NCBI GenBank assembly: GCA_002742935.1
Contig: PDON01000043.1
Location: 1-20,164 of the forward strand
Length of the DNA: 20,164 bases
Origin: Candidatus Cloacimonadota bacterium
GTDB taxonomy: Bacteria > UBA4055
Reading direction: 5' to 3'
Of the stretch, positions 1-20,065 are shown piece by piece. The notes below the pieces were generated by a model, which was not told where the DNA came from, made no database searches, and saw only the letters and a list, made by a program, of their open reading frames with translations. Numbering within the stretch: the stretch's first letter is position 1; every line of letters starts with the position of its first letter. Both the position numbers and the translations under genes were made by a program.

Positions 1-99
1 CAATAAAAAAAATACTATTACTTACAGAAGAGCAAAAATATCTTGCTAAATTATTTGGATTTTAAAATGGGTGTTAAATTTCGGAAGACAGGAAAAAGT
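1..99. repeat. Left terminal inverted repeat (99 bp). It is the exact reverse complement of 20066-20164.
   Basis: I reverse-complemented 20066-20164 by hand and got the same string as 1-99 (caataaaaaaaatactatt...ggaaaaagt), 99/99 identical. Identity stops at position 100 (t versus c). Confidence 0.95.
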
Positions 100-235
100 T
101 TACACTCTTTTGTTTTAGTTTATATTTTCTCTCTCTTTAATTGTTGGATTTATTGATTAAAATTTATTATATTAGCCCTTTACATTGTTGCTGGGTATTT
201 TATCCGATTGATTGGTATCTTTATTAAAACTACTC

Positions 236-265
236 TTGTTGTAAGAGTTATTTCTTTATCATAAT
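236..265 (+). promoter_or_regulatory. Candidate sigma70-type promoter for the ABC operon: TTGTTG, 18-bp spacer, CATAAT.
   Basis: The -35-like hexamer is at 236-241 and the -10-like hexamer at 260-265. An AGGA RBS at 271-274 precedes the GTG at 281. The background is AT-rich, so the motif is weak evidence. Confidence 0.25.
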
Positions 266-280
266 TTTATAGGATTTAAT

Positions 281-1831
281 GTGGATTCTACTTATGTAAA
301 AATGGAAAATATTACTAAAACATTTGGAAGCGTTGTAGCTAATAAAAATGTAAGTTTCAAAGTAAAAAAGGGTGAAATCTATGCTCTTTTAGGTGAAAAT
401 GGAGCAGGTAAGAGTACCCTTATGAATATGCTTTCAGGTATATATAGACCTAATAGTGGTACCATATACATTAAGGGTAAAAAGGTTGATTTTACAAAAC
501 CTTCAGATTCTATTGAATCCGGTATTGGTATGATACATCAACACTTTAAGCTTGTTGATGTTATGACTGCTAAGGAAAATATTATACTGGGTCAAGAGCG
601 TAGTATTTTCATTAATAAAAAAAAGCTTAGTGAAAAAATAAATAAAATATGTGAAAGATTTGGTCTCTACATTGATCCTGATAAAAAAGTTTATGATATG
701 TCTGTAAGTGAAAAGCAGACTGTTGAGATTTTAAAGGTTCTCTATAGAGGTGCAGATATCCTTATTCTTGATGAGCCAACAGCTGTTTTAACTCCTCAAG
801 AGACTGAAAAGCTTTTTGAAATTCTTAGAACTATGAAAAAAGAGGGTTGTGCAATTATTATTATCACCCACAAGCTCAATGAGGTTATGGAGATAAGTGA
901 TTGGGTAACTGTTTTAAGAAAGGGTGAGAGTGTAGGTTCTGTTAAAACTTCCGATAGTACACCTAAAAGTCTAACGGAACTTATGGTTGGGAGATCTGTT
1001 GATTTAAAGATTTCAAAGGGAGCTTTAGGAAGTAGAGATGATATTCTTACTGTTGACTCTTTAACCTATAAAGATGGGGAAGGGGTAAAGAAGCTTGATA
1101 ATGTGAGTTTTAAAATGAGAGCAGGTGAGATTTTAGGTGTTGCAGGGATTGCAGGTTCCGGACAAAAGGAGCTTTGTGAAATTTTAGCAGGATTACTAAA
1201 GGCTGATTCCGGTAGTATTCTTTTTAAAAATGAGAATATTGTAGGTAAAAACTCCAGAGATATTATCTCTTTAGGTATAACAATGAGCTTTATTCCTGAA
1301 GATAGGCTTGGTATGGGTCTTGTAGCCTCAATGGATATGGTTGATAATATTATTTTGAAGGATTATTATAAGCAAAAATCAATCTTTTTGGATAGAAAAC
1401 CTTCGGCTGAAAAAGCTAAGAAGATCATTAAAGATTTAGATGTTCAAACTCCGGGTATCTTTAATCCTGTAAAGGAGATGTCAGGTGGAAATATCCAAAA
1501 AGTTTTACTTGGAAGAGAGCTTGATTTTAATCCTAGTCTAATTATTACCGCATATCCTACAAGAGGCTTGGATATTGGTTCTTCACATCTTATTTATGAT
1601 ATACTAAACGAGCAGAAAAGCAAAGGTGTTCCAGTTTTATACATTGGAGAAGATTTAGATGTTCTTATTCAGCTGTGTGATAAGATTATGGTTTTGGCTG
1701 ATGGTAAAAATGGTGGTGTTGTTAATGCTGAAGAGACCAATAAGGAGGAGCTTGGATTGATGATGACCTCAGGAGCAAATAATCCTAAGGCTAAGGCTCG
1801 TAAAATTTTAGGTAGAACAGGGGGGGAGTAG
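281..1831 (+). CDS. ABC transporter ATP-binding protein with two tandem NBDs (CUT2/BMP sugar-nucleoside type).
   Basis: NBD1 has Walker A GENGAGKST, the CUT2-like signature MSVSEKQ and Walker B ILILDEPT. NBD2 has GIAGSGQKE and the signature MSGGNIQKV. The start is GTG at 281 with AGGA 6 nt upstream; an in-frame ATG at 302 is an alternative start. Confidence 0.9.
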   Translation: MDSTYVKMENITKTFGSVVANKNVSFKVKKGEIYALLGENGAGKSTLMNMLSGIYRPNSGTIYIKGKKVDFTKPSDSIESGIGMIHQHFKLVDVMTAKENIILGQERSIFINKKKLSEKINKICERFGLYIDPDKKVYDMSVSEKQTVEILKVLYRGADILILDEPTAVLTPQETEKLFEILRTMKKEGCAIIIITHKLNEVMEISDWVTVLRKGESVGSVKTSDSTPKSLTELMVGRSVDLKISKGALGSRDDILTVDSLTYKDGEGVKKLDNVSFKMRAGEILGVAGIAGSGQKELCEILAGLLKADSGSILFKNENIVGKNSRDIISLGITMSFIPEDRLGMGLVASMDMVDNIILKDYYKQKSIFLDRKPSAEKAKKIIKDLDVQTPGIFNPVKEMSGGNIQKVLLGRELDFNPSLIITAYPTRGLDIGSSHLIYDILNEQKSKGVPVLYIGEDLDVLIQLCDKIMVLADGKNGGVVNAEETNKEELGLMMTSGANNPKAKARKILGRTGGE

Positions 1832-1832
1832 T

Positions 1833-2879
1833 TTGTTTAAAGTTGAAAAGCGTAACGGGTGCTCAAAAACTCTTAATTTAAAGGTTAGAATTAGTGCTGT
1901 TATTTTAGCTCTTTTAACATCAGCACTTTTTGTTCTTATTATGGATAAAAATCCTATAGATGTTTATGGTTCAATGATAAATGGAGCTTTTGGAACTTCT
2001 TACAGAATTCATGAAACATTTATAAAGTCTATACCTCTTATTATTACCTCTATTGGTATCTCTATAGCTTTTAGAATGAAGTTTTGGAACATTGGTGCTG
2101 AAGGTCAGATTATGATGGGGGCTTTTGCTGCTACATTTATGGCTTTAACTTTTGATAACTTACCATCATATATCCTTCTTCCTCTAATGTTTGTATCAGC
2201 TTCCATTATGGGTGGTCTATGGGGGCTTATTCCCGGATACTTTAAAGCCAGATTTAAAACAAATGAGACAATATTTACTCTAATGATGAACTATGTTGCA
2301 ATAAAATGGATAACTTACTTACAATATGGTCCTTGGAAAGATCCTAAATCGTTGGGTTTTCCTAAAATAAGAAATTTTACTGAAAATGGTGTTCTACCAA
2401 ATTTCCTGGGTATTCATCTGGGGTGGGTAATAGCTCTTTTAATAGTTGTTTTTATTCATTTTTACATAAAAAAAACCAAAAGTGGTTTTGAGATAAATGT
2501 AGTTGGAGAAAGTGAAAACACTGCAAGATACGCAGGAATGAATGTTAAAGCCATAATAATGAGAACAATTTTTTTGAGTGGTGCAATCTGTGGAATAGCG
2601 GGTATGATTCAAGCCAGTGCCGTAAACAAAACATTGAATGTTCAACTTAGTGGCGGTGTTGGTTATACTGCAATTATAACAGCTTGGCTTTCGGGACTTT
2701 CAGCTCCAATTATAATTGTTGTTTCATTTCTTTTTGCTGCAATGGTTCAAGGAGGAACTTTTATTCAGCTTGTATATCAGATACCTCAAAGTGCAGCAGA
2801 GATACTTCAAGGTATGATCCTCTTTTTTGTGCTTGGAAGTGAATTTTTTATAAGATTTAAATTAGTTAAAGTTAAATAG
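1833..2879 (+). CDS. ABC transporter permease (BPD_transp_2-like, multi-TM).
   Basis: The protein is hydrophobic with many TM segments. It lies 1 nt after the ATPase stop. The TTG start is preceded by GGGGGGGAG (1820-1828), which serves as the RBS. Confidence 0.85.
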   Translation: MFKVEKRNGCSKTLNLKVRISAVILALLTSALFVLIMDKNPIDVYGSMINGAFGTSYRIHETFIKSIPLIITSIGISIAFRMKFWNIGAEGQIMMGAFAATFMALTFDNLPSYILLPLMFVSASIMGGLWGLIPGYFKARFKTNETIFTLMMNYVAIKWITYLQYGPWKDPKSLGFPKIRNFTENGVLPNFLGIHLGWVIALLIVVFIHFYIKKTKSGFEINVVGESENTARYAGMNVKAIIMRTIFLSGAICGIAGMIQASAVNKTLNVQLSGGVGYTAIITAWLSGLSAPIIIVVSFLFAAMVQGGTFIQLVYQIPQSAAEILQGMILFFVLGSEFFIRFKLVKVK

Positions 2880-2888
2880 GTTTAAGAT

Positions 2889-3818
2889 ATGTTGACTACA
2901 TTTTTAGCGGCAACTGTGGTAGCAGGAACTCCTCTATTATTCGCAATACTTGGAGAACTTATTACTGAAAAAGCAGGAAAACTTAATCTTGGTGTTGAAG
3001 GTATGATGCTTTTAGGTGCAGTCTCTTCATTTTTGGCTGTTCTTTATACTGAAAGTCCCTATTTTTCACTGTTAGCAGCAATGTTAGCAGGAGCATCGGG
3101 AGCTTTTATTTTTGCATTCCTTACCATATCTCTAAGAGCTAATCAGGTGGTAACGGGTTTAGCTCTAACAATATTTGGAACCGGTGTTTCAAGCTTTCTT
3201 GGTAAAGATTTGATGGGTTTGGTTGTCCCTGATTCCGTTAAGCTGTTTTTTAAAGAGTTTAAAATCCCTTTTTTAGGTGATATTCCCGTTATAGGAGAGG
3301 CTTTTTTTAATCAAGGTATATTTGTATATTTAGGTTATTTATCTGTTATTTTAGTTGGAATTTATCTGTTTAACACAAGGTTCGGTTTATATTTAAGAGC
3401 TATTGGTGAAAATAATTCAGCTTCAGATGCTGCGGGTATTGGTATAACTTTATATAAATATGTTCATGTTTTAATAGGTGGTGCTTTATGCGGTCTTGCA
3501 GGTGCATATCTTTCTCTTGTTTATGTTCCTTCATGGCAAGAAAATGTTACTGCCGGTAGGGGATGGATAGCTGTTGCTTTAGTTATTTTTTCTAAATGGA
3601 GTCCTTACAGGGCTTTATTAGGAGCTTTTATTTTTGGAGGATTGGATATTATAGGCTTTAGGTTACAAAAGTTTGAGATACATATTTCTCAATATTTAAT
3701 AGATATGTTGCCATATTTAGTTACAATTATTATTCTTGTTTTGGCATCTATTAGAAAATCCAAGGAAAGTTCTCCACCTGCAGAGTTGGGAAACTCATAC
3801 TATAGAGAAGATAGATAA
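2889..3818 (+). CDS. ABC transporter permease, second heterodimer partner.
   Basis: It is a hydrophobic multi-TM protein whose ATG at 2889 lies 9 nt after the upstream permease stop. The arrangement matches the usual ATPase-permease-permease operon layout. Confidence 0.85.
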   Translation: MLTTFLAATVVAGTPLLFAILGELITEKAGKLNLGVEGMMLLGAVSSFLAVLYTESPYFSLLAAMLAGASGAFIFAFLTISLRANQVVTGLALTIFGTGVSSFLGKDLMGLVVPDSVKLFFKEFKIPFLGDIPVIGEAFFNQGIFVYLGYLSVILVGIYLFNTRFGLYLRAIGENNSASDAAGIGITLYKYVHVLIGGALCGLAGAYLSLVYVPSWQENVTAGRGWIAVALVIFSKWSPYRALLGAFIFGGLDIIGFRLQKFEIHISQYLIDMLPYLVTIIILVLASIRKSKESSPPAELGNSYYREDR

Positions 3819-3960
3819 TTTTAAATGAATAGATCTCTTTTTATGTTTATAATAGTATAATTTATTTCTGTTATTTTATCTGACTTTTCTTATATTGTAG
3901 AGGGGTGAACTTAGAGAATATTTTTACTCTTGGTGTTGAATAATTTTATATATTTTAACC

Positions 3961-4012
3961 AGCTTTCTTGTTTTATTGTTAGGATTAAGTTGTTCTAGAA
4001 AGCTCTTTTTTT
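3961..4012 (+). terminator. Possible intrinsic terminator or attenuator between the ABC operon and the kinase gene.
   Basis: The stem is agctttct (3961-3968) paired with agaaagct (3997-4004), followed by a T7 run (4006-4012). The 28-nt loop is long for a canonical terminator. Confidence 0.3.
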
Positions 4013-4073
4013 GTTAGATTCTTAATATGTTTAAATTTTAAAATTTGAACCAGTCTTAAAAGGTTAAAACAGT

Positions 4074-6725
4074 ATGAATTTTAGATATAAAGGTATATTA
4101 CCAAGTCAAGCTAAAAAATTGATAGTATATATTTTTTTAATCTTTGCTTTTTTTTCAGTTTTTTTTATAAGTGCAAATCTATATTTTTTTAATATCTCCC
4201 TTGATCTACACATAGAAAGAGTTGCTTCTATTCAATCTCAACTTGATATATCATCAATTATGCAGACTAAGTTTCAATCAACTTTGAATATTTTTTATGA
4301 GTTGAAAGATAGTAAAAATATTGATGAAGCTAATTTAAATAAAGGTAGACTCAATAAATTTATTAATGATTTTAATAAGGTTGCTTCTGTTTTAGAAAAT
4401 GGAGGAGTTTTTGATTACTTAGTTCCTTTAAGTTTTAATAATAAAATTGAATTTAGGGATAGAATAAGGTATAAAAAAAGATTTAGTAAAGAGTTTGATA
4501 TCCAACTTAAAGGTATTAAACCTCTTATTTCTCGAATAGAGCTTTTAATTGAACAGTTTTACCAACTAAAGATAGAGAGTTTAGAAAGCTCTGAAAAATT
4601 ACCTTTTGATTCTTTTTTTAAAAATCTAAATAATACTTTTATAGAGTTGGAAGAGAGTATAAACCATCTCTATTTTGAAGCGAAAGGTAATTTAGATAGC
4701 GAAAATAAAGATTTTTACGATAGTGAAAATTTTATTAAAAACTTCAATATAGTTTCCTTTTTTATTATTCTATTTCTCACCGCTCTTTTTATATTTATAA
4801 GTTTTAGAAAAGTTTTACATATTATATATGAAAAAGAGAGTGTGAAAAGGTTAAATGATAAACTTCTAAAAGCTGTAAACTGGGCTTCTTGTTCAATAAT
4901 TATAACGGATCAAAGTGGAAATATTGAGTATGTTAACCATGCTTTTGAGAAAAATAGCGGATATTTAGCAGAAAATGTATTGGGAAAAAGACCGTCTATT
5001 TTAAAAAGTGGTCATCACAAAAGCAGTTTTTACGAAGATTTATGGGATACAATTTCTAAAGGTAAGATTTGGAACTCCGTAATTTGTAATAAGAGAGCTG
5101 ATTCTACTCTTTTCCGTGAAAAAGTTTCTATTATTCCTATAATTAAAGAGGATAATAGTATAGATGGTTACATTGGTATAAAAGATGATATTACAGATGT
5201 ATTAGATCTTATCTCTAAGTTTGAAGATAGTAAAGCGATGGAGATGATTTTTGATAAGGCACCAATAGGAATAATGCTCATTAGTATGGATAAAAAAATT
5301 ATTAAAATGAACAATGAAGCTGCTTTAATTCTGAAATATGATAGCTTAGAGGAAGCTGAAAGATCTATGTACGGAAAATTATGCTTTGAGAATTTTTGCT
5401 CTGCTACCAAGGATAGTTGTCCTATAATTAATCTAAAAAAGAAGAGTGTTATTCTGGAAGAAAAATTAATGTGGACAAAGGATAGAAGTTTAACACCTGT
5501 ATTAAAAAGCGTCATACCTATTAAATATAATTCTAAAAATATTCTTCTTGAGATGTTTGTAGATATAAAGAGTATTAAAACAGTTGAGATGAAAGAGAGA
5601 AAATTAAGTAAAGCAAAAACTAATCTTCTAAACAACATTATTTATGAAGTTGAAATTTTTATGGATGAAGTTATAGAAAAAGTTGCTGCTTTAGAAAACA
5701 AAAAAGAAAATACTCATAAAAATAATCTACTTACCTCTATTGAAAATTCTAAGTCTAATCTTTTGAATTTTATTAATACTACTGTTGGTTTTTTAGATTT
5801 TGAGATTGAAAAAACGAAGGTTAAGGAGCATTCAATTGAGCTCGATTCTCTCATTTTTTCTATTGTAAAACAGTTTAAAGTTCCTGCTATGAAAAAATCT
5901 TTAGAACTGTTAGTTGATATATCTTACAATATTTTTAATTGTTATATATGTGATTCTATAATAATTGCCAATATCCTTATGAATTTAATTGATAATGCAA
6001 TAAAGTTTACAAAATCAGGTCAGGTTGTTACGAAAGTATCGCTAATTGACAGTAAGGATGATAGTGAAGTTTTAAAGTTTAGTATTGAAGACTCCGGTAT
6101 TGGTATAACTTCTGAGAATAGAGATAAGGTTTTTGAAGAGTTTATACAGTTGGATGAAAATAATAAAGAAAATTCTAAAGGTTCCGGCCTTGGTACAACC
6201 ATAGCTAAAAATTTAACAGAGCTGATAGGTGGAAGTATAGAGCTCCTTTCTCCTAACCCTAATTTGTATATATCTAAAGATCCCGGTTCAGTATTTTCTT
6301 TTAAACTTAAACTAAAAAAGGATAAGGTAAACAAAGAGATAACTAAGAACCCTATCCATTTGGAAAATTTATCTGTACTAATAATAGATGCAAATCAATT
6401 TTCTATTGAGATTCTTTATAATCTTTTGAGTAACCACTATACTGTTAGTGCTGAGATTAACCCTAAAAATATTGATAACTACTTTCATAAAATTAAAGAT
6501 TTGATAATTGTAGATGTTAACTCTTTGGAAAAATCTTTTAGTAAACTACAAGAGTTTAAAAAAATAGTACCGACAATAAAAATTGTACTCATTGGTCTTG
6601 ATTTGACTAATATTACTTCTAGTATGGAAGCAATAATTGATTTAAAATTAAAGAAACCAATAATGAAAAATTATCTGATTGACGGTATTTCAAATCTATT
6701 TCCGGATAAAGTTTTTTTTGAATAA
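4074..6725 (+). CDS. Membrane sensor hybrid histidine-kinase homolog with two TM segments, two PAS-like domains, HisKA-like and HATPase_c domains, and a C-terminal receiver-like domain. The H-box is atypical.
   Basis: TM segments lie at about aa 17-37 and 216-236. The PAS region includes NWASCSIIITDQSGNIEYVNHAF. The HATPase_c N-box is NLIDNAIKFT, G1 is IEDSGIGI and G2 is GSGLGTTIAKNL. The C-terminal REC-like region has VLIIDAN...IIVDVN...KLKKP. The H-box aligns as AKTNLLNNIIYEVEIF, which puts Tyr where the phospho-His is expected. Confidence 0.85.
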   Translation: MNFRYKGILPSQAKKLIVYIFLIFAFFSVFFISANLYFFNISLDLHIERVASIQSQLDISSIMQTKFQSTLNIFYELKDSKNIDEANLNKGRLNKFINDFNKVASVLENGGVFDYLVPLSFNNKIEFRDRIRYKKRFSKEFDIQLKGIKPLISRIELLIEQFYQLKIESLESSEKLPFDSFFKNLNNTFIELEESINHLYFEAKGNLDSENKDFYDSENFIKNFNIVSFFIILFLTALFIFISFRKVLHIIYEKESVKRLNDKLLKAVNWASCSIIITDQSGNIEYVNHAFEKNSGYLAENVLGKRPSILKSGHHKSSFYEDLWDTISKGKIWNSVICNKRADSTLFREKVSIIPIIKEDNSIDGYIGIKDDITDVLDLISKFEDSKAMEMIFDKAPIGIMLISMDKKIIKMNNEAALILKYDSLEEAERSMYGKLCFENFCSATKDSCPIINLKKKSVILEEKLMWTKDRSLTPVLKSVIPIKYNSKNILLEMFVDIKSIKTVEMKERKLSKAKTNLLNNIIYEVEIFMDEVIEKVAALENKKENTHKNNLLTSIENSKSNLLNFINTTVGFLDFEIEKTKVKEHSIELDSLIFSIVKQFKVPAMKKSLELLVDISYNIFNCYICDSIIIANILMNLIDNAIKFTKSGQVVTKVSLIDSKDDSEVLKFSIEDSGIGITSENRDKVFEEFIQLDENNKENSKGSGLGTTIAKNLTELIGGSIELLSPNPNLYISKDPGSVFSFKLKLKKDKVNKEITKNPIHLENLSVLIIDANQFSIEILYNLLSNHYTVSAEINPKNIDNYFHKIKDLIIVDVNSLEKSFSKLQEFKKIVPTIKIVLIGLDLTNITSSMEAIIDLKLKKPIMKNYLIDGISNLFPDKVFFE

Positions 6726-6802
6726 TACTCTTTTGTATATTTTTATTCTTAATTATTTTATGCAGATATACTTTTAAAGCTTTGTAAAAATACGGAGATT
6801 TA

Positions 6803-8278
6803 ATGAAAAACTATAAAGAGGTTGTATACGCTTTAAATGAGATTGGTATTGCTTTAAGTTTTCAAACCGATATAAATAAACTTCTTGTCATTATGGTGGA
6901 TAAGATAATTAATTTTATAAATTGTGATGCTTGTTCAATATTTTTGAGAGAAAGAGATCCTGACAGATTGTTTTTTAGGGTCAGTAAAACTATATCAATG
7001 AATGTTCAATCAATTAAAGATATACCTATACCTTTTTCTGAAGAGTCTATTGCCGGATACTCTGCGGTAAATAAGAAGCTGTTAAATATAGATGATTGTT
7101 ACAATCTAAAGAGTACTCTTCCTTATAAGTTTAATAGAAACTATGACAAAATTTCAGGATATAGGACTAAATCTATGCTTTGTGTACCTATAGTAGATAG
7201 AAATAAAGATCTTTTGGGGGTACTTCAAATAATAAATAAACTTAATGAAATAACAGGCGAGGTTGTATCTTTTGATAAAGAGTGTGAATTAATAGCTGAA
7301 TCTTTAGTTAGTCAAGCATCTATAGCAATTTCAAATTTTAACTTAATTGAAAAGAATAAAAATCTGTATAAAAGTTTAGTTGCATCATTTACTGAAGCTA
7401 TTGAAGCAAGAAGCCCCCATACAGCAGGACATTCAAGTAGAGTTAAACTCCTTTCAGTCCTCATTGCTAAAGCTATAAATAGAGTTAAATATGGAAAATT
7501 TAAAGATTTTAGTTTTAGTGATAGTCAAATTGAAGAGTTAAGTTTTTCGGCTATATTGCATGATGTAGGAAAGATCTCTATTCCTGAAAAAATTTTAGAA
7601 AAAGTAAATAAATTAACAGATGAAGAGATGAGAGCTATTGAGGAGAGATTTGAAGCTATACGACTCTCTATCTTGAAGTATGATGGCAATAATAGTGCAA
7701 AAGCTATTAGAGAAATAGATGAAGATTATAAATTTTTGAAGAGTAAATCTATTTCGGGAAAGCCTTTAACCAATGAGGAGATAGATAGGATTAAATATAT
7801 ATCAAAAAAAGAGTTTTCTCTTTCGAACGGTAAATATAAACTTTTTTTGAACAATGATGAGGTAACAAAACTTCTCATTAAAAACGGATCTTTTACAGTT
7901 GATGAGTATGAGATTATGAAAAAGCATGTGTTATATACACATGAAATTTTAAAAGAGATACCTTTTACAGATGAACTAAAAAATGTTTGTGAGTACGCTT
8001 CCAAACATCATGAGCTTTTAGATGGTAGCGGATATCCAAATAATTTAACAGAAAAAGCTATACCTTTACAATCAAGAATTTTAACAATAGCAGATATATT
8101 TGAAGCTCTTACAGCATTGGACAGACCTTATAAAGAATCTAAGCCAATTGATATCTCTTTAAAGATTTTATATGATCAAGTTTCAAAAGGTAAGTTGGAT
8201 AAAGATGTTTTTGATGTATTTGTTAAAGAAAGGGTTTATGAAGAGTATCTTAATAGTAGAGATATAAAAGAGGATTGA
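6803..8278 (+). CDS. GAF-domain HD-GYP phosphodiesterase (predicted c-di-GMP hydrolase).
   Basis: The HD motif is AILHDVGKI and the GYP motif is HHELLDGSGYP. The N-terminal ~190 aa are GAF-like. A GGAG RBS sits 5 nt before the ATG. Confidence 0.85.
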   Translation: MKNYKEVVYALNEIGIALSFQTDINKLLVIMVDKIINFINCDACSIFLRERDPDRLFFRVSKTISMNVQSIKDIPIPFSEESIAGYSAVNKKLLNIDDCYNLKSTLPYKFNRNYDKISGYRTKSMLCVPIVDRNKDLLGVLQIINKLNEITGEVVSFDKECELIAESLVSQASIAISNFNLIEKNKNLYKSLVASFTEAIEARSPHTAGHSSRVKLLSVLIAKAINRVKYGKFKDFSFSDSQIEELSFSAILHDVGKISIPEKILEKVNKLTDEEMRAIEERFEAIRLSILKYDGNNSAKAIREIDEDYKFLKSKSISGKPLTNEEIDRIKYISKKEFSLSNGKYKLFLNNDEVTKLLIKNGSFTVDEYEIMKKHVLYTHEILKEIPFTDELKNVCEYASKHHELLDGSGYPNNLTEKAIPLQSRILTIADIFEALTALDRPYKESKPIDISLKILYDQVSKGKLDKDVFDVFVKERVYEEYLNSRDIKED

Positions 8279-8318
8279 ACCAATTCTCTCTCAAAACTGT
8301 AAAAAATAATAACAAATG

Positions 8319-8347
8319 TTGATTTTTGTATATTTTTGTTCTATACT
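8319..8347 (+). promoter_or_regulatory. Candidate sigma70 promoter for the lipoprotein-SPFH operon: TTGATT, 17-bp spacer, TATACT.
   Basis: The -35-like hexamer is at 8319-8324 and the -10-like hexamer at 8342-8347, about 100 nt upstream of the lipoprotein start. Confidence 0.35.
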
Positions 8348-8446
8348 TAATATATTAGGTGGTTAAAAATATGCAATTATACTTTTGCTTTTTCTGACAC
8401 AGACTAATTTATAAATTAACTATCTTAATTAAATGTGGAGTTGTAT

Positions 8447-9571
8447 ATGAGGTTTTTAATCTTGTTTATTGTTGGTGTTACCATTTTTTCCTGTTCCTTA
8501 GGTAAAAAATCAGATGGTAATGTTGAAGTGGTGAAAAATGGAGTAAAACCTTTGGATCCAAATTTTAAAATTGATCTTGAGTATGTTGGAGAGATAAAAT
8601 CTGATGAAAAAAACTCATTTGGTCAAGCTTATGCTATTAGCATGGATTCAAAAGGGGATATCTATTTAACTGAGCAGTATAGAATGATCCACAAATATAA
8701 CGGCAAAGGTAACTTTATCAAGAACATTGGTAAAAATGGTGGAGGTCCCGGTGAATATTCATATCTTGTTACATCATTTGTCTCTATGGATACTGTCTAC
8801 GCTATAGATGCCGCTTCCCAGAAATGTATAAAGTATGATCTAGATGGTAACTATCTAAGTGATTTCCCTCTCAAAGGGTCATTTCCTGGAATGGTGTACA
8901 GTTCTAATGATAATCTTGTTGGGTTAGTTATCAAGAATGTTATGAATGAAAATAAGATTATGATGAGGTACTATCTCTCAATACTTAACAGGGATATAAG
9001 TTTTAAAGAGATTCTTTTTGAAGATAGTCTTTTCTTGGATCCAAATAATATGGGAGCTCTTATGGATATGGGTATGCTTGCAATGCTTGTAACTTTGGAT
9101 AAAGATGGATACTATATGGCTGAGAGTAGTGAGAACATATATAAGATAAACTACTATGATAAAGATGGAAATTTAACAAAGGAGATAACAAAAAACTACG
9201 CTAAGATACCATACTCCAAAAAAGAGATTGAGCTTACCAACAAAGTTATTGGCGAAATGTTTAAGAAGGCTCTAACCCCTCAATTGGCAGAGAGTATGAA
9301 GTTTGACAAGAAGTATAAAAGAGCTATTAACGATATAAAGTCAGATCATCTAAACAGATTATGGGTTAATGGTGGAAACAAAGATATTCAAACCTTTGAC
9401 TTCCCTTTAAAATATGATATTTTTAAGGATGGTAAGTTTATAAATAGTGTACCTCTAATGGATGGCGACAATCCTATTCTTATGACAGGACAAACATTTA
9501 TTTTAGGTGATAGACTCTTTGTTAACGATATGAAAAACAGTAAGGTTAAAATGTATAAAATATTAAATTAA
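8447..9571 (+). CDS. Lipoprotein, beta-propeller/NHL-like (BF3164-type GxGPGE motif).
   Basis: The lipoprotein signal is MRFLILFIVGVTIFSC. The motif is SKGDIYLTEQ...GKNGGGPGEY. I prefer the ATG at 8447, which has a GGAG RBS at 8437-8440, over the GTG at 8435 given in the ORF track. The protein is a paralog of the one encoded at 17243-18322. Confidence 0.75.
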   Translation: MRFLILFIVGVTIFSCSLGKKSDGNVEVVKNGVKPLDPNFKIDLEYVGEIKSDEKNSFGQAYAISMDSKGDIYLTEQYRMIHKYNGKGNFIKNIGKNGGGPGEYSYLVTSFVSMDTVYAIDAASQKCIKYDLDGNYLSDFPLKGSFPGMVYSSNDNLVGLVIKNVMNENKIMMRYYLSILNRDISFKEILFEDSLFLDPNNMGALMDMGMLAMLVTLDKDGYYMAESSENIYKINYYDKDGNLTKEITKNYAKIPYSKKEIELTNKVIGEMFKKALTPQLAESMKFDKKYKRAINDIKSDHLNRLWVNGGNKDIQTFDFPLKYDIFKDGKFINSVPLMDGDNPILMTGQTFILGDRLFVNDMKNSKVKMYKILN

Positions 9572-9584
9572 TTTGGAGAATAAT

Positions 9585-10469
9585 ATGACAAAAGGACAAA
9601 TAAGAATTACTGTAGTAATAGGAATATTGATTCTTATCTTACTTTTTGGAAGTAAAACATTTATCAGTATCCCTGCAGGACAAACAGGAGTTGCAACTCT
9701 GTTTGGTAGTGTACAGGATAAATCCTATAAAGAGGGTTTACATTTCCCTATAAATCCTCTTTATGAGTGGCATATCTATGATACAAGGGAGCAGACACAC
9801 TTAGAGGTTGCAAATGTACCTTCCCAAGATCAACTTCAGACAAAACTTGAAGTTAGCGTTCAGTATAGAATAGTAAGCGATCAAGCACCTCTAATTCTTC
9901 AAGAAACAGGTAGCTTTAACAAGCTTATTCAGGTTCATTTAGTTCCAAAGCTTAGATCTCTTTTAAGAGAGCAAGGTAAGACAATTAAAAGAGCTGAAGA
10001 TTTTTTTAAGGAAGAAACTCAAGAAACATTACAAGCTCAACTTCTTTCGGGTCTATCTGAATATTTAGCTCCAAAGGGTATAGATGTTAGTGCTGTTTTA
10101 ATTAGAGATATTCAACTTCCTCCTTTTATTACAAAGGCTATTGAATCTAAAAAGGAGAGAGAGCAAGAGGTTGAAAAGCAGAAAGCTGAGCTTGAAAGGT
10201 ATAAAACAGAGCAGCAACAAAAAATTGCTTTTGCAAAGGCTGAAAGAGTAGCAGCTGAAGAGGAAGCTAAAAAGATCAAAACTTTGGCAGATGCTGAATC
10301 TTACAGAATCTCTAAAATTAATAAAGCTATTGCTGATAACTCAAACTATATCAAATTGCAATCTTTGGAAGCTTTAAAAGCTATATCTAAAGATAAGACT
10401 GCTAAAATATACTTTATTAACGGAGATAGTCCTAATCCTCTACCTCTTATGAATATTGGTAATAAGTGA
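9585..10469 (+). CDS. SPFH/band-7 (HflK/C-prohibitin-like) membrane protein with a C-terminal charged coiled-coil.
   Basis: It has an N-terminal TM segment (ITVVIGILILILLFG), an SPFH core and a KKEREQEVEKQKAELERYK coiled-coil. I prefer the ATG at 9585 with GGAG 6 nt upstream; the ORF track uses TTG at 9573. It starts 14 nt after the lipoprotein stop, so the two are probably co-transcribed. Confidence 0.85.
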   Translation: MTKGQIRITVVIGILILILLFGSKTFISIPAGQTGVATLFGSVQDKSYKEGLHFPINPLYEWHIYDTREQTHLEVANVPSQDQLQTKLEVSVQYRIVSDQAPLILQETGSFNKLIQVHLVPKLRSLLREQGKTIKRAEDFFKEETQETLQAQLLSGLSEYLAPKGIDVSAVLIRDIQLPPFITKAIESKKEREQEVEKQKAELERYKTEQQQKIAFAKAERVAAEEEAKKIKTLADAESYRISKINKAIADNSNYIKLQSLEALKAISKDKTAKIYFINGDSPNPLPLMNIGNK

Positions 10470-10573
10470 ATTTAAAAAGTAGTTTTTTGACTATATTTAG
10501 GAATAAAAACAATATTATAATTGCACTCATAAGTTGTATGTTTTATATTCTCATAGTTATTCATTTCTAATTG

Positions 10574-10609
10574 TCCTTTCTTTAAACCTTGAGCAGTTCG
10601 AGGAAAGGA
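10574..10609. terminator. Hairpin between the convergent SPFH gene and the MutS-like gene; a possible bidirectional terminator.
   Basis: The outer stem is tcctttc (10574-10580) paired with gaaagga (10603-10609). An inner cuugag/uucgag stem with two G-U pairs is also possible. There is no clean U-tract on either strand. Confidence 0.3.
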
Positions 10610-10619
10610 TGGTTAGAAA

Positions 10620-12440
10620 TTAAGAATAAGTTAAACTTTGTGATTCCTCCAGTGGAACAGGAGGTTTACCGATTTTAATTATTTTCATCTTTTTCATAAT
10701 AAATATAGCATTTTTATTTTTACATATTCCATTTTTTAATTTATAATCAAATATCAATTCATTATCAACTATCTTTGACTCAAAGCATTTATTGAATAAT
10801 CTGTTAGGATAATCATTTGCTATTTTACAAATTTCTAAATCGTGAGTAGCAATAATACCTATGGCATTTTTATTTATAAGATTCTCAATTATCTTGATTG
10901 TACCTGCTTTTTTATCATCTGAGTTAGTTCCTCTTAAAATCTCATCAAGAATTACAAAACATTTAGATACTTTTAAATTATCTATAATTTCTCTCAACCG
11001 CCTGATTTCAGCATAAAAATACGATTCTTTTCTATCTAATGAATCTGTCTGACGCATTGAAACAACTATTTTTAAAGGATTGATATTTGCTTTAGTTGCA
11101 CAAACGCAAGACCCTATTCCAGCCAAAAGCATATTTATTCCTAAAGTTCTTAAAAATGTACTTTTACCAGACATATTGGAACCTGTTAAAATAATTAAAT
11201 TATTATTATTAAAGCTGATTGAATTACAAATTCGTACATTTCTATTAACAAGAGGGTGTCCTAAGTTCTCAACATCAATACGATTTTCATTATTCAATAA
11301 AGGAAACACGAATTTAGGGTTATTATATGAAAAATTTGCCAAACTATTTAACATTTCAAATTCACCTATAACACTTAACCATTTTTCTATTTCTCTACAA
11401 TGATTTTGTTTCCATTTCAAAAGAGAGTTTAATGCATGCAAATGAAACAAAAATATTCCATTTAAAAATAAAAAAGCCATCCCATTTTGAACACTTTCAA
11501 TATTTGAAAATAACATAGAAAGTGTCTTTATTTTCCTACTTGCTGAATTAGAGTTATCAGAAAGTTTTGTTTGTAATTCACTAAGTCTACTACTTTTAAA
11601 TTGTTTTTTCTCTATTTCCGATAAAATATCTCCATACTTGTTAATTATTTCAGAAACTTTATCCACCTCTAATAGATTTTTTTTTACTTCTTTAATCTTA
11701 CAAGAAGCAATGATTAGATTAATAATGAAAATTGAAGTTGTTATCGATATATACGAAGGATTGTAGATAGTAGCAATAATAGAAAACACAAATATTATCG
11801 GCAAAATATAAATTAGAATATTTAATAATTTTGAGAATTGTTTTTCTTTTTTCTTTGACCAAGAAATTAAGTTTTCGTAATTTGATTTGCTGTCTTTATT
11901 TATTTTAGCAATAGCCATTAACTTTTGTCGCCATTCAATTTCTTTTGTCAATTCTTGAACTGCCTGTTGATTTAGTTTTATTTCATTTTCAGGAAGTTTT
12001 TCTAACAATAAATTAGATAAGTATTTATACCCTACGTAAGTTGATGTTCTATTTATATTTTGAAATAACGAATTTTCTCCAAAAATATCTAAATCATAAG
12101 TGTATATATGTTTATGGTCAATAAATTCTTTTCCGTTCTCAAAAGGTATGGTTATTCCATCTAAATATGATATTTCATCTGAATTTATAGATATGATATT
12201 CTTATTAAATAATTTTTCCCAAGATATAGTATTATGTATTTTAATTAACACCAAGAAAATAAAAAATAGTAAAACACTACAAACTTCAAAAATATGATGT
12301 TCTGTAAAAAATGGATTATATATGCAAAAAACAAATAGTATTACAACCAACAACCGAATTACGCTTATTGTATTATATCTCTTTTTTAATTTATTGTAAT
12401 TTTCTAAATGTTTTTCTTTTGCTTTCTTATAGTATGTCAT
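10620..12440 (-). CDS. Membrane-anchored MutS-related protein: multi-TM N-terminal region and a MutS domain V ABC-ATPase C-terminal region, with no Smr domain and no mismatch-binding domain.
   Basis: Walker A is LTGSNMSGKSTFLRT and Walker B is CFVILDEILRGTN, followed by IIATHD. Hydrophobic segments include LLVVILFVFCIY and LLFFIFLVLI. Confidence 0.8.
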   Translation of the reverse strand: MTYYKKAKEKHLENYNKLKKRYNTISVIRLLVVILFVFCIYNPFFTEHHIFEVCSVLLFFIFLVLIKIHNTISWEKLFNKNIISINSDEISYLDGITIPFENGKEFIDHKHIYTYDLDIFGENSLFQNINRTSTYVGYKYLSNLLLEKLPENEIKLNQQAVQELTKEIEWRQKLMAIAKINKDSKSNYENLISWSKKKEKQFSKLLNILIYILPIIFVFSIIATIYNPSYISITTSIFIINLIIASCKIKEVKKNLLEVDKVSEIINKYGDILSEIEKKQFKSSRLSELQTKLSDNSNSASRKIKTLSMLFSNIESVQNGMAFLFLNGIFLFHLHALNSLLKWKQNHCREIEKWLSVIGEFEMLNSLANFSYNNPKFVFPLLNNENRIDVENLGHPLVNRNVRICNSISFNNNNLIILTGSNMSGKSTFLRTLGINMLLAGIGSCVCATKANINPLKIVVSMRQTDSLDRKESYFYAEIRRLREIIDNLKVSKCFVILDEILRGTNSDDKKAGTIKIIENLINKNAIGIIATHDLEICKIANDYPNRLFNKCFESKIVDNELIFDYKLKNGICKNKNAIFIMKKMKIIKIGKPPVPLEESQSLTYS

Positions 12441-12747
12441 TTTTTATAACCTACTTTTATTTTATATTTTATTGTATTGTTTATCATAATATATTGCTAG
12501 ATTTTTCTTCAGTTTTATAGCATTTTATCTAATACTTGCTAATAACGATCGAAGTATGCTCTTTGCATCTACTTTCTTTCTGCTATATCAACTTATATTG
12601 CTCCAAAAGTTAGATTGCCTAGAAATTAGTAGTTAAAGGAATTCATCTATTAATTATCAATTTTCAGTTAAGACAAAACCTTACATTTTACTTTAAAAGT
12701 ACATGTATAAGGTTAAATAGATTTAGTTTGAGGTGGTTTAGGGTATT

Positions 12748-13209
12748 CTACTTAATAAAAAAACTTTTCTCTCCTAAATAGCTCCCATCTTTAATAAATT
12801 TAAGGGTATATGATCCTGATTTAAGTTTTTTTTTACAATTTCCATCTATGGTATATTTACCCATTGATACATCATAACTTTTACTATAAAACTCCACTCT
12901 TTTTCCATCTTTATACCACTCTTCAGTAAGTTCAAAAGATCCACTATTTTCAGAAATTAGTGATAGAGTATAACCTATTTTCCCAAATTCAAAACCATTA
13001 AAAATATCATTTTTTACTCTGTATTTAGAATCTAACCCTTTTTCTCCAAGTGGATAAAAATCCAGATCAACAAATTTTAGATTTACTCTACTCTCTTCAA
13101 TCCTTTTTATATTTTCAGGATTTTTAACCGGAGTTTTTTTTATAGTTTGCTGTTGTAAAATACAAGACGTAAGCATAACAGCTAAAATTATTGTTAATAA
13201 AAATCTCAT
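12748..13209 (-). CDS. Small lipoprotein of unknown function (153 aa).
   Basis: The signal and lipobox are MRFLLTIILAVMLTSC. A GAGGG RBS lies upstream. It is co-directional with the hexosaminidase gene and 86 bp downstream of it. Confidence 0.6.
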   Translation of the reverse strand: MRFLLTIILAVMLTSCILQQQTIKKTPVKNPENIKRIEESRVNLKFVDLDFYPLGEKGLDSKYRVKNDIFNGFEFGKIGYTLSLISENSGSFELTEEWYKDGKRVEFYSKSYDVSMGKYTIDGNCKKKLKSGSYTLKFIKDGSYLGEKSFFIK

Positions 13210-13295
13210 ATTACCCTCACTTTATAACTAATCCACTAAATCATTAGCCTATAAATATAAGCTTTTATCTATAAATTTCTAAATCTTTTAACACT

Positions 13296-15488
13296 CTATT
13301 CAATAGTAACCTGATCTAAAAATAACCACATAATTGGAATATTAAGATCTTTTGCTACCTCTTCTCGATTAAATGAGTTAGCTTTAACCCTAATATATCT
13401 GGCTTTAAAATCTCCGAATACAGAGTACTCCTTAATAGATTTGCCCTCTTTACTACTATAGTTGCTATTATCGCTGTATACTGTTTCATAATTTAGATTA
13501 TCTGAAGAGATACTTATCTCCAACTTTTTTGGAAGAAAGATATGCACCTCTTTCCTTTCAAGTAGATTTAAGTTAACCTTACTAAAGTTTACAATCTCTT
13601 CTAAATCTATATAGAGATTAATACCCTCTTCAAACCCTTGCCAACCTTCGCTAGTGTGATCTAAACCTCCATAAACACCATCACTTAAACCATATTCAAA
13701 AGTTGAAGGATATTTATGGCTAAAAGGCTTATTGTAATAGCTCCTCTTTCCAAAACCCTTATGACTACTTATCACTAAAGTTTGATCCTTACCTATCTGC
13801 TTCCCATTTAGTAGTTGTCTTGCTACAAATTTTACAGAACTCTCAATCTCAATAGGTTTTTCATAAAGCTTAAACTCTCCACCCATTGAGTAGTAGATCT
13901 CAGAACCTATAATCTCAGAATCAACGGTGATTAAATATCTTCCATCTATAAATTTTCTGGTTATATCCAATACTGTTGAACCGGTTCCATGATTATATCC
14001 TAAACTATCCAAAATCTTATACTGATACGGTAATTTAGCCTTAAATTTTTCCCAACACTTATCCTCACTGCTACACCAAGCTGTCTCAGAAAGAGCAACT
14101 AATCTCGGAAGTAACATATATTCAGCATGAGATTCAGTTGGAACCCACTCTGTCCAAAGGCACCCTTCCGTTCCAAGTATAAAATCTTTCTCTTTACCTT
14201 CTAGTTTAGAAGGTATAGGGTTATAGCTATAGACCCTTTTTATAGGACTATATCCACCAAAAGCTCTTGCTTCACTTCCCTCATCACTCTGATAATGATC
14301 AAAATATAGATGTGAATTAGGTACCATTACAGCCCTGTTACCATTTTTACAAGCCTCAATTCCACCATCCTCATTCTGCCAAGAAAAAACAATAGCATTT
14401 GGAGCTAATCCACCCTCTAAAATTTCATCCCAACCCAATAGATCCTTTCCTCTACTATTGAGAAACTTCTCTATCCTCTTTATGAAGTAACTTTGAAGCT
14501 CCTTACTATCCTTTAAACCGTGCTCTTCCATTCTCTTTTTACACAATGGACACTTATCCCAATTGGTTTTGCAAGCTTCATCACCACCAATGTGAAAATA
14601 TTTTGAAGGGAAAAGAGGTATAACCTCATCTAAAACATTTTCAATAAAGGTAAAAACCTCCTCTTTACCACCACAGAAAATATCATCGTTTGGCCAGTAT
14701 GACCCTGTTGGAACAGTAACCTTTTGATTAAAACAACCAAGCTCCGGATAAGCAGCTATAACCTCAACACTATGACCCGGCATCTCTATTTCAGGAATAA
14801 TCTCAATAGATCTATCCTTTGCATACTCAACTATCTCTCTAATTTCATCTTGGGTATAGTAACCACCGTAACTTCTCTCTTCCCCCTCCTTCTCCTCTTC
14901 ACGAGAGAGCCAGCTACCGGTTCTAGGAGCTCTCCACGCAGAGATCTCTTGAAGTTTAGGATATTTTTTTATCTCAACTCTCCAACCATTATCATCTGTT
15001 AGATGCCAGTGAAAACTATTTAATTTATAAAATGCTAATATATCAATATATTTCTTAATAAAATCAGCTTTAAAAAAGTGTCTGCTCACATCTAAGTGCA
15101 TACCTCTATAACCAAGGCTAGGCTTATCCTCAATATATATCTTTTTAAGCTTTAGCTCTTCTCTATCAGAGTCAAAAATAGATTCATCAAACAATTGTAT
15201 TAGGGATAGCAGACCATAAAGAAACCCCTTCTCCTCTTTGGATTTTATAGTAATACTCTCATCTATATCCAAAATATAGGACTCATGGGAAAGAGAGCTA
15301 TTGAGTTCTAGATCTATCTTAAACTTACTATCCCTTTTAAAACCAATATTAAACTTAGAGTAAAGATCTTTTATAAAGGTACTAAATTTATAGTTTTCAA
15401 AATTTTCTATATATATCGAAAGGTTTTTGGGAAGTTTAATAAAACCTTCTCTTTTGCTAATTTTATATGGTTTAGGCACAATATTCAT
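13296..15488 (-). CDS. GH20 beta-N-acetylhexosaminidase with a C-terminal discoidin-like (F5/8 type C) domain and no signal peptide.
   Basis: The GH20 catalytic motif is HIGGDE (YFHIGGDEACK). It has GH20b-like N-terminal and TIM-barrel regions and a C-terminal ...ARYIRVKA... segment. The N-terminus MNIVPKPYKISKREG is not hydrophobic. Confidence 0.9.
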   Translation of the reverse strand: MNIVPKPYKISKREGFIKLPKNLSIYIENFENYKFSTFIKDLYSKFNIGFKRDSKFKIDLELNSSLSHESYILDIDESITIKSKEEKGFLYGLLSLIQLFDESIFDSDREELKLKKIYIEDKPSLGYRGMHLDVSRHFFKADFIKKYIDILAFYKLNSFHWHLTDDNGWRVEIKKYPKLQEISAWRAPRTGSWLSREEEKEGEERSYGGYYTQDEIREIVEYAKDRSIEIIPEIEMPGHSVEVIAAYPELGCFNQKVTVPTGSYWPNDDIFCGGKEEVFTFIENVLDEVIPLFPSKYFHIGGDEACKTNWDKCPLCKKRMEEHGLKDSKELQSYFIKRIEKFLNSRGKDLLGWDEILEGGLAPNAIVFSWQNEDGGIEACKNGNRAVMVPNSHLYFDHYQSDEGSEARAFGGYSPIKRVYSYNPIPSKLEGKEKDFILGTEGCLWTEWVPTESHAEYMLLPRLVALSETAWCSSEDKCWEKFKAKLPYQYKILDSLGYNHGTGSTVLDITRKFIDGRYLITVDSEIIGSEIYYSMGGEFKLYEKPIEIESSVKFVARQLLNGKQIGKDQTLVISSHKGFGKRSYYNKPFSHKYPSTFEYGLSDGVYGGLDHTSEGWQGFEEGINLYIDLEEIVNFSKVNLNLLERKEVHIFLPKKLEISISSDNLNYETVYSDNSNYSSKEGKSIKEYSVFGDFKARYIRVKANSFNREEVAKDLNIPIMWLFLDQVTIE

Positions 15489-15520
15489 ATTTAAACCCCT
15501 TTTTCATTTTATGAAATATA

Positions 15521-15539
15521 ATAGGATATCCTTTCCTAT
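15521..15539. promoter_or_regulatory. Dyad-symmetric element in the divergent hexosaminidase / ATPase-nuclease intergenic region.
   Basis: The sequence ataggatatcctttcctat contains a perfect 10-bp palindrome aggatatcct (15523-15532) and an ATAGGA/TCCTAT inverted repeat. Confidence 0.3.
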
Positions 15540-15585
15540 CAAATATTAAATAAAAATTTCTATAAAAAGTTTAATCCATATTTAT

Positions 15586-15651
15586 AATTTCATTTTCAAA
15601 CTAAAATTGATTATAATATAAAGGTAAGTGTATATCACATAAGGAAAGATA
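15586..15651 (+). promoter_or_regulatory. Conserved leader/promoter of ATPase-nuclease copy 1, with -10 TATAAT at 15612-15617 and RBS AAGGA at 15641-15645.
   Basis: The same block occurs at 18443-18508 upstream of copy 2, with TATAAT at 18470-18475 and RBS AAGGAGAG. Confidence 0.5.
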
Positions 15652-17181
15652 ATGAAACTACCAATCGGAATACAAACATTTAGTAAAATTCGTGAAGATG
15701 ATTATGTATACATAGACAAAACTAAAGAAGCACTAGAGTTAATAGAACAATATCAATACATATTTCTTTCTCGTCCTCGAAGATTTGGGAAATCTCTATT
15801 TTTAGATACCTTGAAATCTATTTTTGAAGGCAATAAAGAATATTTTAGGGGCTTATATATTGAGGATAGATACGATTTTAATCAAAAATTTCCTGTAATT
15901 CATATTAGTTTTGCCGGAAACCTTTCAACAAAAGAGGGTATAGATGGAGTTTTTAACTATATTCTAAAAAAAAATATTGAAGCTCTAAAGGTAAATATTG
16001 ATAATGATTTAGATATTCCCAACAAACTATCAGAACTAATTCAAAAAACCTATGAAAAGTATAACCAAAAAGTTGTCGTTTTAGTTGATGAGTACGACAA
16101 ACCTATCTTAGATAATATTACAGAACCAATAATGAGGGAATATGCAAATAAGAGCTTAAAAGCTTTTTATGAAATATTAAAAAGATCGGATAAATATCTA
16201 AAGTTTGTATTCTTAACCGGAGTAAGTAAGTTTTCAAAAGTTTCCATTTTTTCAGGATTAAATAATCTAAAGGATATATCTTTAGAGGAGAAGTTTGGTA
16301 ATATTTGTGGCTATACCCATGAAGATATAGAAACAAATTTTAATCCATTATTACAAGGTGTTGATTTAGAGAAGTTAAAAGAGTGGTATAATGGGTATTA
16401 CTTCTTAAAAGATAAGGTTTATAACCCTTTTGATATTTTGCTATTTATCAGTGAAAATTTCACTTATAAGAACTATTGGTTTGAAACAGGGAACCCTTCA
16501 TTTTTAATTGAGCTTATCAAAAAGAACAACTACTATCTACCAAATCTTGAAAATATAGTTGTTGGAGAGGAGATTTTAAACTCTTTTGATGTCGAAAATA
16601 TCAATTTAGAAACACTGCTTTTTCAAACAGGGTATTTGACTATAAAAAAGAGGTTTGAAAAGAGAAATAAAATAAAATTCTCTTTAAAAATTCCAAACTT
16701 AGAAGTAAAAGTTTCTCTAAACTCTGCAGTTTTAAATAAACTTGTAAGCAATATATCTCAAAAAGAGAAGAATCAAGATGATGCTTATGACTCCCTATTT
16801 GATGCAAAACTAGAGGATTTTAAAACTAGTTTAATCTCACTATTCGCTTCGTTACCATATCAAAATTATGTTAAAAACAATATAAATATCTATGAAGGGT
16901 TTTATGCTAGTGTAATCTACTCCTATCTTGCTTCTCTTGGATTCCCCATAAGCGTAGAGGAGAGTACAAATATGGGTAGGTTGGATATGAGTCTTCTTGT
17001 AAATAATCACAGATATATTTTTGAGTTTAAGGTTGGTAATGAAAATGCTCTTTCCCAAATTAAATACAACAGATACTATGAAAAGTTTATCAGTGAGAAT
17101 AGCGATATATATTTAGTGGGAATAAATTTTGATGAAGAGAAGAAAAATATAAGAAGTTTTGAGTGGGAAAAATTTAGATAG
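15652..17181 (+). CDS. pfam09820-type AAA-ATPase fused to a PD-(D/E)XK nuclease domain (copy 1).
   Basis: Walker A is RPRRFGKSLFLDT and Walker B is VVVLVDEYDKP. The C-terminal nuclease motifs are GRLDMSLL and IFEFKVG (D...E-x-K). Confidence 0.85.
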   Translation: MKLPIGIQTFSKIREDDYVYIDKTKEALELIEQYQYIFLSRPRRFGKSLFLDTLKSIFEGNKEYFRGLYIEDRYDFNQKFPVIHISFAGNLSTKEGIDGVFNYILKKNIEALKVNIDNDLDIPNKLSELIQKTYEKYNQKVVVLVDEYDKPILDNITEPIMREYANKSLKAFYEILKRSDKYLKFVFLTGVSKFSKVSIFSGLNNLKDISLEEKFGNICGYTHEDIETNFNPLLQGVDLEKLKEWYNGYYFLKDKVYNPFDILLFISENFTYKNYWFETGNPSFLIELIKKNNYYLPNLENIVVGEEILNSFDVENINLETLLFQTGYLTIKKRFEKRNKIKFSLKIPNLEVKVSLNSAVLNKLVSNISQKEKNQDDAYDSLFDAKLEDFKTSLISLFASLPYQNYVKNNINIYEGFYASVIYSYLASLGFPISVEESTNMGRLDMSLLVNNHRYIFEFKVGNENALSQIKYNRYYEKFISENSDIYLVGINFDEEKKNIRSFEWEKFR

Positions 17182-17242
17182 AAGTATAGTGTAAATATAT
17201 AGTGGGTTAGAAATAAGTGTTAAATTTTAATGAGAATTGTGA

Positions 17243-18322
17243 ATGAAATCATTAAATTTTTTTATCATAGTTTTACTTTGTCTACTCTCTCTTAGTTGTT
17301 CTAAAAAGAGAGAAATTAAACTTAATCTTCCTCAGAAAACAAGAGATTATAAGATTATTCATAACAAAAATCAGCCTTTGGATAAAGATTTTTATTATAA
17401 AACAGAGAAACTGTTTACAATCAATAGTGAAAATTCTAACCCATATATTAGCTTCCCTTTGTCGTTTGATGTTGATTCCAAAGGGGATATTTTCATTTTG
17501 GATAGTAGAGAGTCCATTATCTATAAATATAATAGAGATGGTAAATTTCTTAAAAAATTTGGTAAAAAGGGTCAAGGTCCAGGGGAAACAGTCGATCCTA
17601 GTTTTTTGTGTATAATTAATGATACAATCTATTACGGTGGAGTTAGAACCCAAAATATTGTTATCTGTTCAAATGAGGGAGAGTTTATCAAAAAAATAGA
17701 ACTACCTATTCGAAATGGTAACCCTGAGTTTACTACTAGATTTAATAATGATAAGATTATCTCTCAAATATTCTCTATTGAAAAATCGGAAGGTAAAACG
17801 AGGATTAGAGTTGCTGTTTTTGATAAAGAGTTTCAGCTTAAAAACCTACTCAGTGATGTGAGTTTTGAGATGGGAGGTCTCCCTAACTCTTTAACACCTT
17901 TTACCTGTTCAGAGGATAAAATTTATGTGGCTCACAATAGTGACAATGAATATGCTATCGATATTTATAACAGGTATGGAGAATTAGAGACTACTATAAA
18001 AAAGAATTATCATAAAATAGAGTTTAATGATATAGATTTTGGTAAAAAAATTAAGAGTAAGCTTACCAAAAAGTCTATAGTTGGAATGTTTTATGATAAA
18101 AAAAGATCCTTACTACTTGTGAAAAGATCTTTTAAGAGAGATGAAAATAATAGAAATAGATTTTTAGTTGATGTTTTCAAGGATAATAAGTTTATCAATA
18201 CCGTCGACTTGGATATAGGTAAAAGTCGTGATTTTTTCAATCCTCTGTTGCAGGTTAAAATTATAGGGGATAGAATTTATGTTAAAAATCAAGATTTATC
18301 TGTATATAAAATAAAAGATTAG
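17243..18322 (+). CDS. Lipoprotein, beta-propeller/NHL-like paralog of the protein encoded at 8447-9571.
   Basis: The signal and lipobox are MKSLNFFIIVLLCLLSLSC. The motif SKGDIFILDSRESIIYKYNRDGKFLKKFGKKGQGPGE parallels the first lipoprotein. Confidence 0.75.
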   Translation: MKSLNFFIIVLLCLLSLSCSKKREIKLNLPQKTRDYKIIHNKNQPLDKDFYYKTEKLFTINSENSNPYISFPLSFDVDSKGDIFILDSRESIIYKYNRDGKFLKKFGKKGQGPGETVDPSFLCIINDTIYYGGVRTQNIVICSNEGEFIKKIELPIRNGNPEFTTRFNNDKIISQIFSIEKSEGKTRIRVAVFDKEFQLKNLLSDVSFEMGGLPNSLTPFTCSEDKIYVAHNSDNEYAIDIYNRYGELETTIKKNYHKIEFNDIDFGKKIKSKLTKKSIVGMFYDKKRSLLLVKRSFKRDENNRNRFLVDVFKDNKFINTVDLDIGKSRDFFNPLLQVKIIGDRIYVKNQDLSVYKIKD

Positions 18323-18430
18323 AGGAGTTTTTAGTAAATTTATTTACCTTAGGGGATAGGCTATTATTTTAAAATAAATATTTCATTGGTAAAACAATAA
18401 ATTCCTCTCTACTGTAATAAGCTAATTATG

Positions 18431-20038: not shown

Positions 20039-20065
20039 GGTTTTACGGACTTTCGAGAAACTTTG

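Follow-up and report, generated by a model that had tools for sequence, protein, structure and literature searches.

At both termini of the 20,164-nt contig analyzed here, which is referred to throughout as the window, the same sequence appears in opposite orientation, and the question raised by this locus is what a perfect terminal inverted repeat of this kind delimits. Positions 1 to 99 and 20066 to 20164 are exact reverse complements (99/99), and from position 100 onward similarity is no better than random, in agreement with an initial annotation that described a perfect 99-bp repeat with an abrupt inner stop. Shuffling the window 2000 times gave terminal inverted repeats of at most 6 nt, which rules out chance as the cause; the runner-up inverted repeat inside the window reaches 32 nt at 78% identity. 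The features discussed below are collected in Table 1.

Table 1. Coordinates of the features of the window
Feature	Positions	Strand	Remarks
Left arm of the 99-nt inverted repeat	1–99	+	3' end of an insertion sequence (IS; 1–92) plus 7 nt of flank; k-mer node common to both contig ends
Last 20 codons (IKKILLLTEEQKYLAKLFGF) and TAA stop (63–65) of an IS1634-family transposase gene that begins upstream of the contig	3–65	+	C-terminal motif
Right terminal inverted-repeat region of the IS, 27 nt: GGGTGT box ... CGGAAGACAGG	66–92	+	CAGG at 89–92 is the conserved element end
AAAAAGT, flank common to both window junctions	93–99	+	Beyond the conserved CAGG; probably not IS
Unique spacer, IS end to ABC ATPase start codon	100–280	+	Three-frame translation
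ABC importer operon: fused double ATPase and two BPD_transp_2 permeases	281–3818	+	Lacks the usual upstream Bmp/PnrA binding-protein gene
Assembly-graph branch point in the second DUF5128 gene	18019–18020		PDWJ01002580.1 departs from the window path
AAA-ATPase_like + PDDEXK_9 gene, second copy	18509–20038	+	Final gene ahead of the right IS junction; convergent with the transposase gene beyond the contig
Right arm of the inverted repeat, anatomy as left arm	20066–20164	-	Flank 20066–20072, IS end 20073–20164, transposase stop 20100–20102; the gene runs off the contig

The identity of the arm was approached through its short open reading frame, which matches the conserved C-terminus of 502-aa IS1634-family transposases, LLL[NTS][DE]EQKYLA.LF.F* (also written ...LLLxxEQKYLAxLFxF*). 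A homologue search was performed with the arm's 22-aa peptide tail, repeated once to satisfy the minimum query length, and returned two small ORFs with the same terminal motif. One of these (P0002, 65 aa) is located on a JGI contig (L005), directly 3' of a 432-aa DDE_Tnp_1 gene whose product scores 312 bits against the NCBIfam model NF033559 ("IS1634 family transposase"; cutoff 100). P0002 is the C-terminus of the L005 transposase, split off by a frameshift at L005 1487–1501 that divides the gene into the 432-aa and 65-aa ORFs; either this copy has decayed or the frameshift is an error of sequencing. The frame-repaired (hybrid) transposase of 502 aa has more than 8000 homologues, most of them also 502 aa long; those with names are annotated as IS1634 family and come mostly from Bacteroidota. 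Among the transposases listed for this hybrid query, the exact 22-aa arm tail was absent (best 17/22), and the sample's own full-length copy was not recovered. On the contig itself, the transposase is represented only by its last 20 codons, which match the conserved C-terminal motif.

The nucleotide sequence downstream of the stop codon also has the properties of an IS1634-family end. The arm aligned without gaps to L005 1638–1730, with ~78% identity over 92 nt, and both finish in CGGAAGACAGGAAAAA. In L005 this sequence forms the right terminal inverted repeat, the partner of TTTTCCTGTTTTCCGCAC at the left end. The right end of the arm is likewise ungapped and in register with the right ends of L005 and of further related copies (L088–L092), and all of them have the same 27-nt stop-to-CAGG spacing. 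Multicopy relatives in long-read assemblies extend from CCTG to CAGG over 1640–1644 bp and terminate in perfect 14-bp inverted repeats (for example, CCTGAGTTCCGCAC / GTGCGGAACTCAGG); complete relatives are ~1.64 kb long, encode a DDE transposase of 502 aa, and have 14-bp ends CCTG....TTCCGCAC / GTGCGGAA....CAGG. The terminal consensus of the IS1634 family is C-----YT (De Palmenaer et al. 2008, PMC2266710); read from the outside, the window end is CCTGTCTT, which fits this consensus, and the corresponding ends of relatives are CCTGTTTT or CCTGAGTT. Multiple copies with differing flanks are a further criterion for IS1634, and at least three junctions with unrelated flanks were observed directly, at the left and right ends of the window and on a third contig (L003) described below. 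The arm is almost certainly the last 92 nt of an IS1634-family element followed by 7 nt of flank, with the element extending outward past both contig ends. A high-GC contig (L004 456–594 and 1191–1439) likewise retains a short piece of this IS 3' end but no transposase body. The remnant comprises a 36-aa ORF ending LILLSEEQKYLAKLFGF together with a GGGTGT...GCGGAAGTCAGG end, and the far end of L004 contains repeated 15-nt units (cttaggttggca..), as is typical of pentapeptide-repeat genes.

The shared bases past CAGG probably reflect a target-site preference and lie outside the element. In L003, CAGG is followed by AAGAGTA, and this copy parts from those of the window at position 95. Elsewhere, AAAAAG or AAAAAA directly follows CAGG in 4 of the 10 related copies examined, and several of the others have purine runs of the AGAG- or AAAG- type. 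Around related copies (L092–L097, L088–L091, and L005), many have a pyrimidine-rich left flank (cttttt, tttttt, cccttt) and most have a purine-rich right flank (AAAAAG, AAAAAA, AGAGAA, AGAGTT), a pattern that suggests either that palindromic Y-run/R-run targets are preferred or that the end bases vary. Target duplications of 5–6 bp, rich in AT, are described for the IS1634 family (PMC2266710); no clean direct duplication of 5–6 bp was seen around the 10 related IS copies.

An IS end explains the sequence of the arm, and its length and position were compared with contigs of a metagenome assembly. Two contigs of metagenome assembly GCA_002754885.1, PDWJ01002580.1 and PDWJ01053779.1, end at the very bases where the window ends. 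An exact-match search with 47 nt of the arm covered species-representative genomes, viral contigs, and a metagenome collection. No match was found in the species-representative genomes or the viral contig collection, and the only match in the metagenome collection was L003 (PDWJ01001430.1; 46.6 kb), a third contig of GCA_002754885.1. This contig (32% GC, compared with 29% for the window) starts with TAAAA followed by window positions 1–94, and its divergence from the other copies sets in at base 100 of its own numbering. Each of the three contig ends in contact with the repeat (window left, window right, and L003) therefore begins exactly 99 nt before the branch. Contigs that adjoin in a de Bruijn graph, as built by assemblers of the MEGAHIT and SPAdes type, share k bases, and 99 was the default largest k of MEGAHIT 1.0. 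A graph with k = 99 gives precisely this rule, and it follows that the assembler, for which we infer k = 99, determined how long the repeat is and why it lies at the termini. No paper or record on PDWJ01, GCA_002754885.1, or SRR6011892 was found in the literature. Among the listed homologues of the 502-aa transposase, most are encoded on contigs of 1.64–1.7 kb, equal to the length of the element, indicating that the IS routinely collapses in, and breaks, short-read metagenome assemblies.

These observations are brought together in a model in which the metagenome would have been assembled as a de Bruijn graph with k = 99, identical IS copies would have collapsed into one path, and every unique contig leaving that path would have retained the last 99 shared bases. 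The window would then be a unique, low-GC chromosomal stretch of 20 kb with a copy of a multicopy IS1634-family element on either side, the two copies being oppositely oriented and each having its right-hand end toward the segment. Because the window departs from one and the same IS end at its two termini, in opposite orientations, a single 99-mer would occupy both termini and appear as a perfect inverted repeat. We infer full-length, untruncated IS copies beyond both contig ends; with 92–97 nt of the element visible in this sample, one or both could be truncated remnants. Taken as a whole, the explanation of a chromosomal segment between inverted IS1634-family copies, trimmed to k = 99, is very probably correct. 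It corresponds to the first of three readings offered by the initial annotation, a chromosomal segment between inverted copies of a longer repeat of which k bases had been captured, and the longer repeat can now be named. The third of those readings, an assembly artefact, applies only to how long the repeat is and to its place at the termini; the sequence and both junctions are real.

The content of the window is in keeping with a chromosomal origin. The interior encodes a fused double ABC ATPase with two BPD_transp_2 permeases, a PAS histidine kinase, a GAF-HD-GYP protein, two DUF5128 β-propeller lipoproteins, an SPFH protein, a protein with MutS domain V, a GH20 hexosaminidase, a 153-aa ORF without matches, and two copies of an AAA-ATPase_like + PDDEXK_9 gene. 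Searches of Pfam, NCBIfam, and PHROGs identified no transposase, integrase, replication, partition, or phage-structural gene in the interior, as originally reported. The accompanying statement that the repeat contains no recombinase holds for the interior but not for the arm, where the last 20 codons and the stop of a transposase gene are present and the gene runs off both ends. The transposase gene is situated just beyond either contig end, and this accounts for the lack of a recombinase in the interior.

Several features of the interior genes were noted separately. The AAA-ATPase_like + PDDEXK_9 gene is duplicated together with 45–75 nt of upstream sequence (15577–17181 and 18435–20038; spacing 2857 nt, 82–93% identity), with a DUF5128 lipoprotein gene between the copies. 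The other DUF5128 paralogue of the window, at 8435–9571, is 28% identical. On the minus strand, 10620–12440 encodes a 606-aa protein that has a hydrophobic N-terminus and only the domain III and domain V ATPase part of MutS. It scores below the curated cutoffs for MutS1, MutS2, and KamC and is an unclassified MutS-related ATPase.

The left junction raises the possibility that the IS copies have done more than interrupt the assembly. In 9/10 related loci checked, a gene for a Bmp/PnrA-type substrate-binding protein lies directly upstream of the homologous ATPase gene. In the window, its place is held by the IS end, 181 nt before the ATPase start, which bears out the earlier observation that the left repeat sits where the binding-protein gene of the ABC operon belongs. 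Three-frame translation of positions 100–280 revealed no recognizable remnant of that gene. A genome scan with the ABC ATPase gave no close relative; the best hits are 64–66% identical and are scattered over several phyla, so that synteny bore only on the binding-protein question. The simplest reading is that the IS inserted between the binding-protein gene and the ATPase gene. Alternatively, the inverted IS copies may have recombined, or may still recombine, so that the 20-kb segment was flipped and the ABC ATPase-permease genes were cut from their binding-protein gene and promoter. The inverted arrangement of two copies, identical over at least 92 nt of each, would permit this, and the binding-protein gene that should precede the ATPase gene is indeed missing at the left junction. 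However, a simple IS insertion accounts for the same facts, with the binding-protein gene located just past the left IS copy, and the strand-composition profile merely tracks gene orientation. Inversion is thus unlikely; it would add to the favored explanation and would not replace it.

A different concern is whether the two junctions belong to one molecule. At the branch listed in Table 1, the linkage of the window's two ends depends on the path taken, and a mis-join could have brought together a left part of 18 kb and a right part of 2.1 kb from different loci or strains. The concern arises from PDWJ01002580.1 (L098), which is identical to the window over 1–18019 and then follows another path of 954 nt (L098 12369–13322), and from the gene duplication in this region, whose copies are 83–93% identical. 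Against it, a Logan contig from an independent assembly of SRR6011892 spans 17023–18460 with a sequence identical to the window, and PDWJ01053779.1 (L002) matches 18082–20164. The proteins also favor the window path: in its DUF5128 product, paralogue homology continues through the branch to the C-terminus, whereas the alternative path has an atypical in-frame ORF that remains open for 577 aa to the contig end, with no further domain and no match in the window, and would be longer than 577 aa. The path of PDWJ01002580.1 is either a chimeric join in GCA_002754885.1 or a strain or paralogue variant. On the strength of the Logan contig, PDWJ01053779.1, and the DUF5128 homology, the window's path was accepted and both IS junctions were taken to flank one molecule; a mis-join is improbable, and the residual doubt about the linkage is correspondingly small.

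Movement of the two inverted IS copies and the intervening 20 kb as one unit, in the manner of the composite transposons Tn5 and Tn10, would formally suit the layout, in which the IS copies are inverted with like ends inward. The cargo, however, consists of ordinary chromosomal genes and includes no typical accessory or selectable trait. The edge and inner proteins of the window were found only on contigs of one sample, and no second context was found. Moreover, with at least three IS copies, a neighboring pair will be inverted by chance about half the time. Composite-transposon movement is therefore very improbable, and less likely than an IS-mediated inversion. The perfect terminal inverted repeat, and nothing else, speaks for the termini of a linear plasmid or phage or for a nonautonomous TIR-bounded element mobilized in trans, and these can be dismissed with near certainty: the arm is a transposase 3' end with an IS inverted repeat, and an unrelated contig of 46.6 kb has a third copy that follows the same 99-nt rule. 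Searches for genes encoding a terminal protein, polymerase, partition, or phage function gave nothing, and the exact search with 47 nt of the arm had no match in the viral contig collection. The initial annotation had also argued against a linear plasmid or protein-primed phage; its second reading, a trans-mobilized cargo element, is unsupported.

Two related candidates were rejected. An invertible segment driven by a dedicated invertase does not fit, as the window encodes no serine or tyrosine recombinase and the inverted sequence is an IS end. A MITE-like cargo element was discarded because the 99 nt are not a unit: the IS end stops at ~92, and the third copy is on an unrelated contig.

For practical purposes, the result is a caution. 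Some pipelines take a perfect inverted repeat at the two termini of a contig as the mark of a complete linear element or virus; where the length of the repeat equals the assembler's k and the repeat contains a transposase tail, it marks merely a contig between two inverted IS copies. The biological content is an IS1634-family element with three or more copies in an uncultured bacterium of low GC content, one of which occupies the place of the binding-protein gene of a Bmp-type ABC importer.

A contig bracketed by IS copies is ordinary and already known in kind, and three described systems come closest to it. With the IS1634 family (PMC2266710; NF033559), the arm shares the transposase C-terminal motif and, equally spaced from it, the right terminal inverted repeat, along with the fit to C-----YT and multicopy occurrence; related complete elements, at 1.64 kb, fall inside the family's length range of 1.5–2.0 kb (1500–2000 bp). 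The window differs in that the last 92 nt alone are on the contig, so the transposase body, left end, and target duplication are outside view. With the composite transposons Tn5 and Tn10, it shares two inverted copies of one IS around a central segment, but here the IS belongs to another family, the cargo is ordinary, the outer ends are out of view, and there is no sign of unit movement. With the contig breaks that repeats induce in de Bruijn assemblies, the window has in common a shared sequence at the exact termini, a length of 99 nt at three contig ends, and a stop at the branch. Its sole peculiarity in that company is that both contig ends leave the same repeat end, so that the overlap mimics a terminal inverted repeat.
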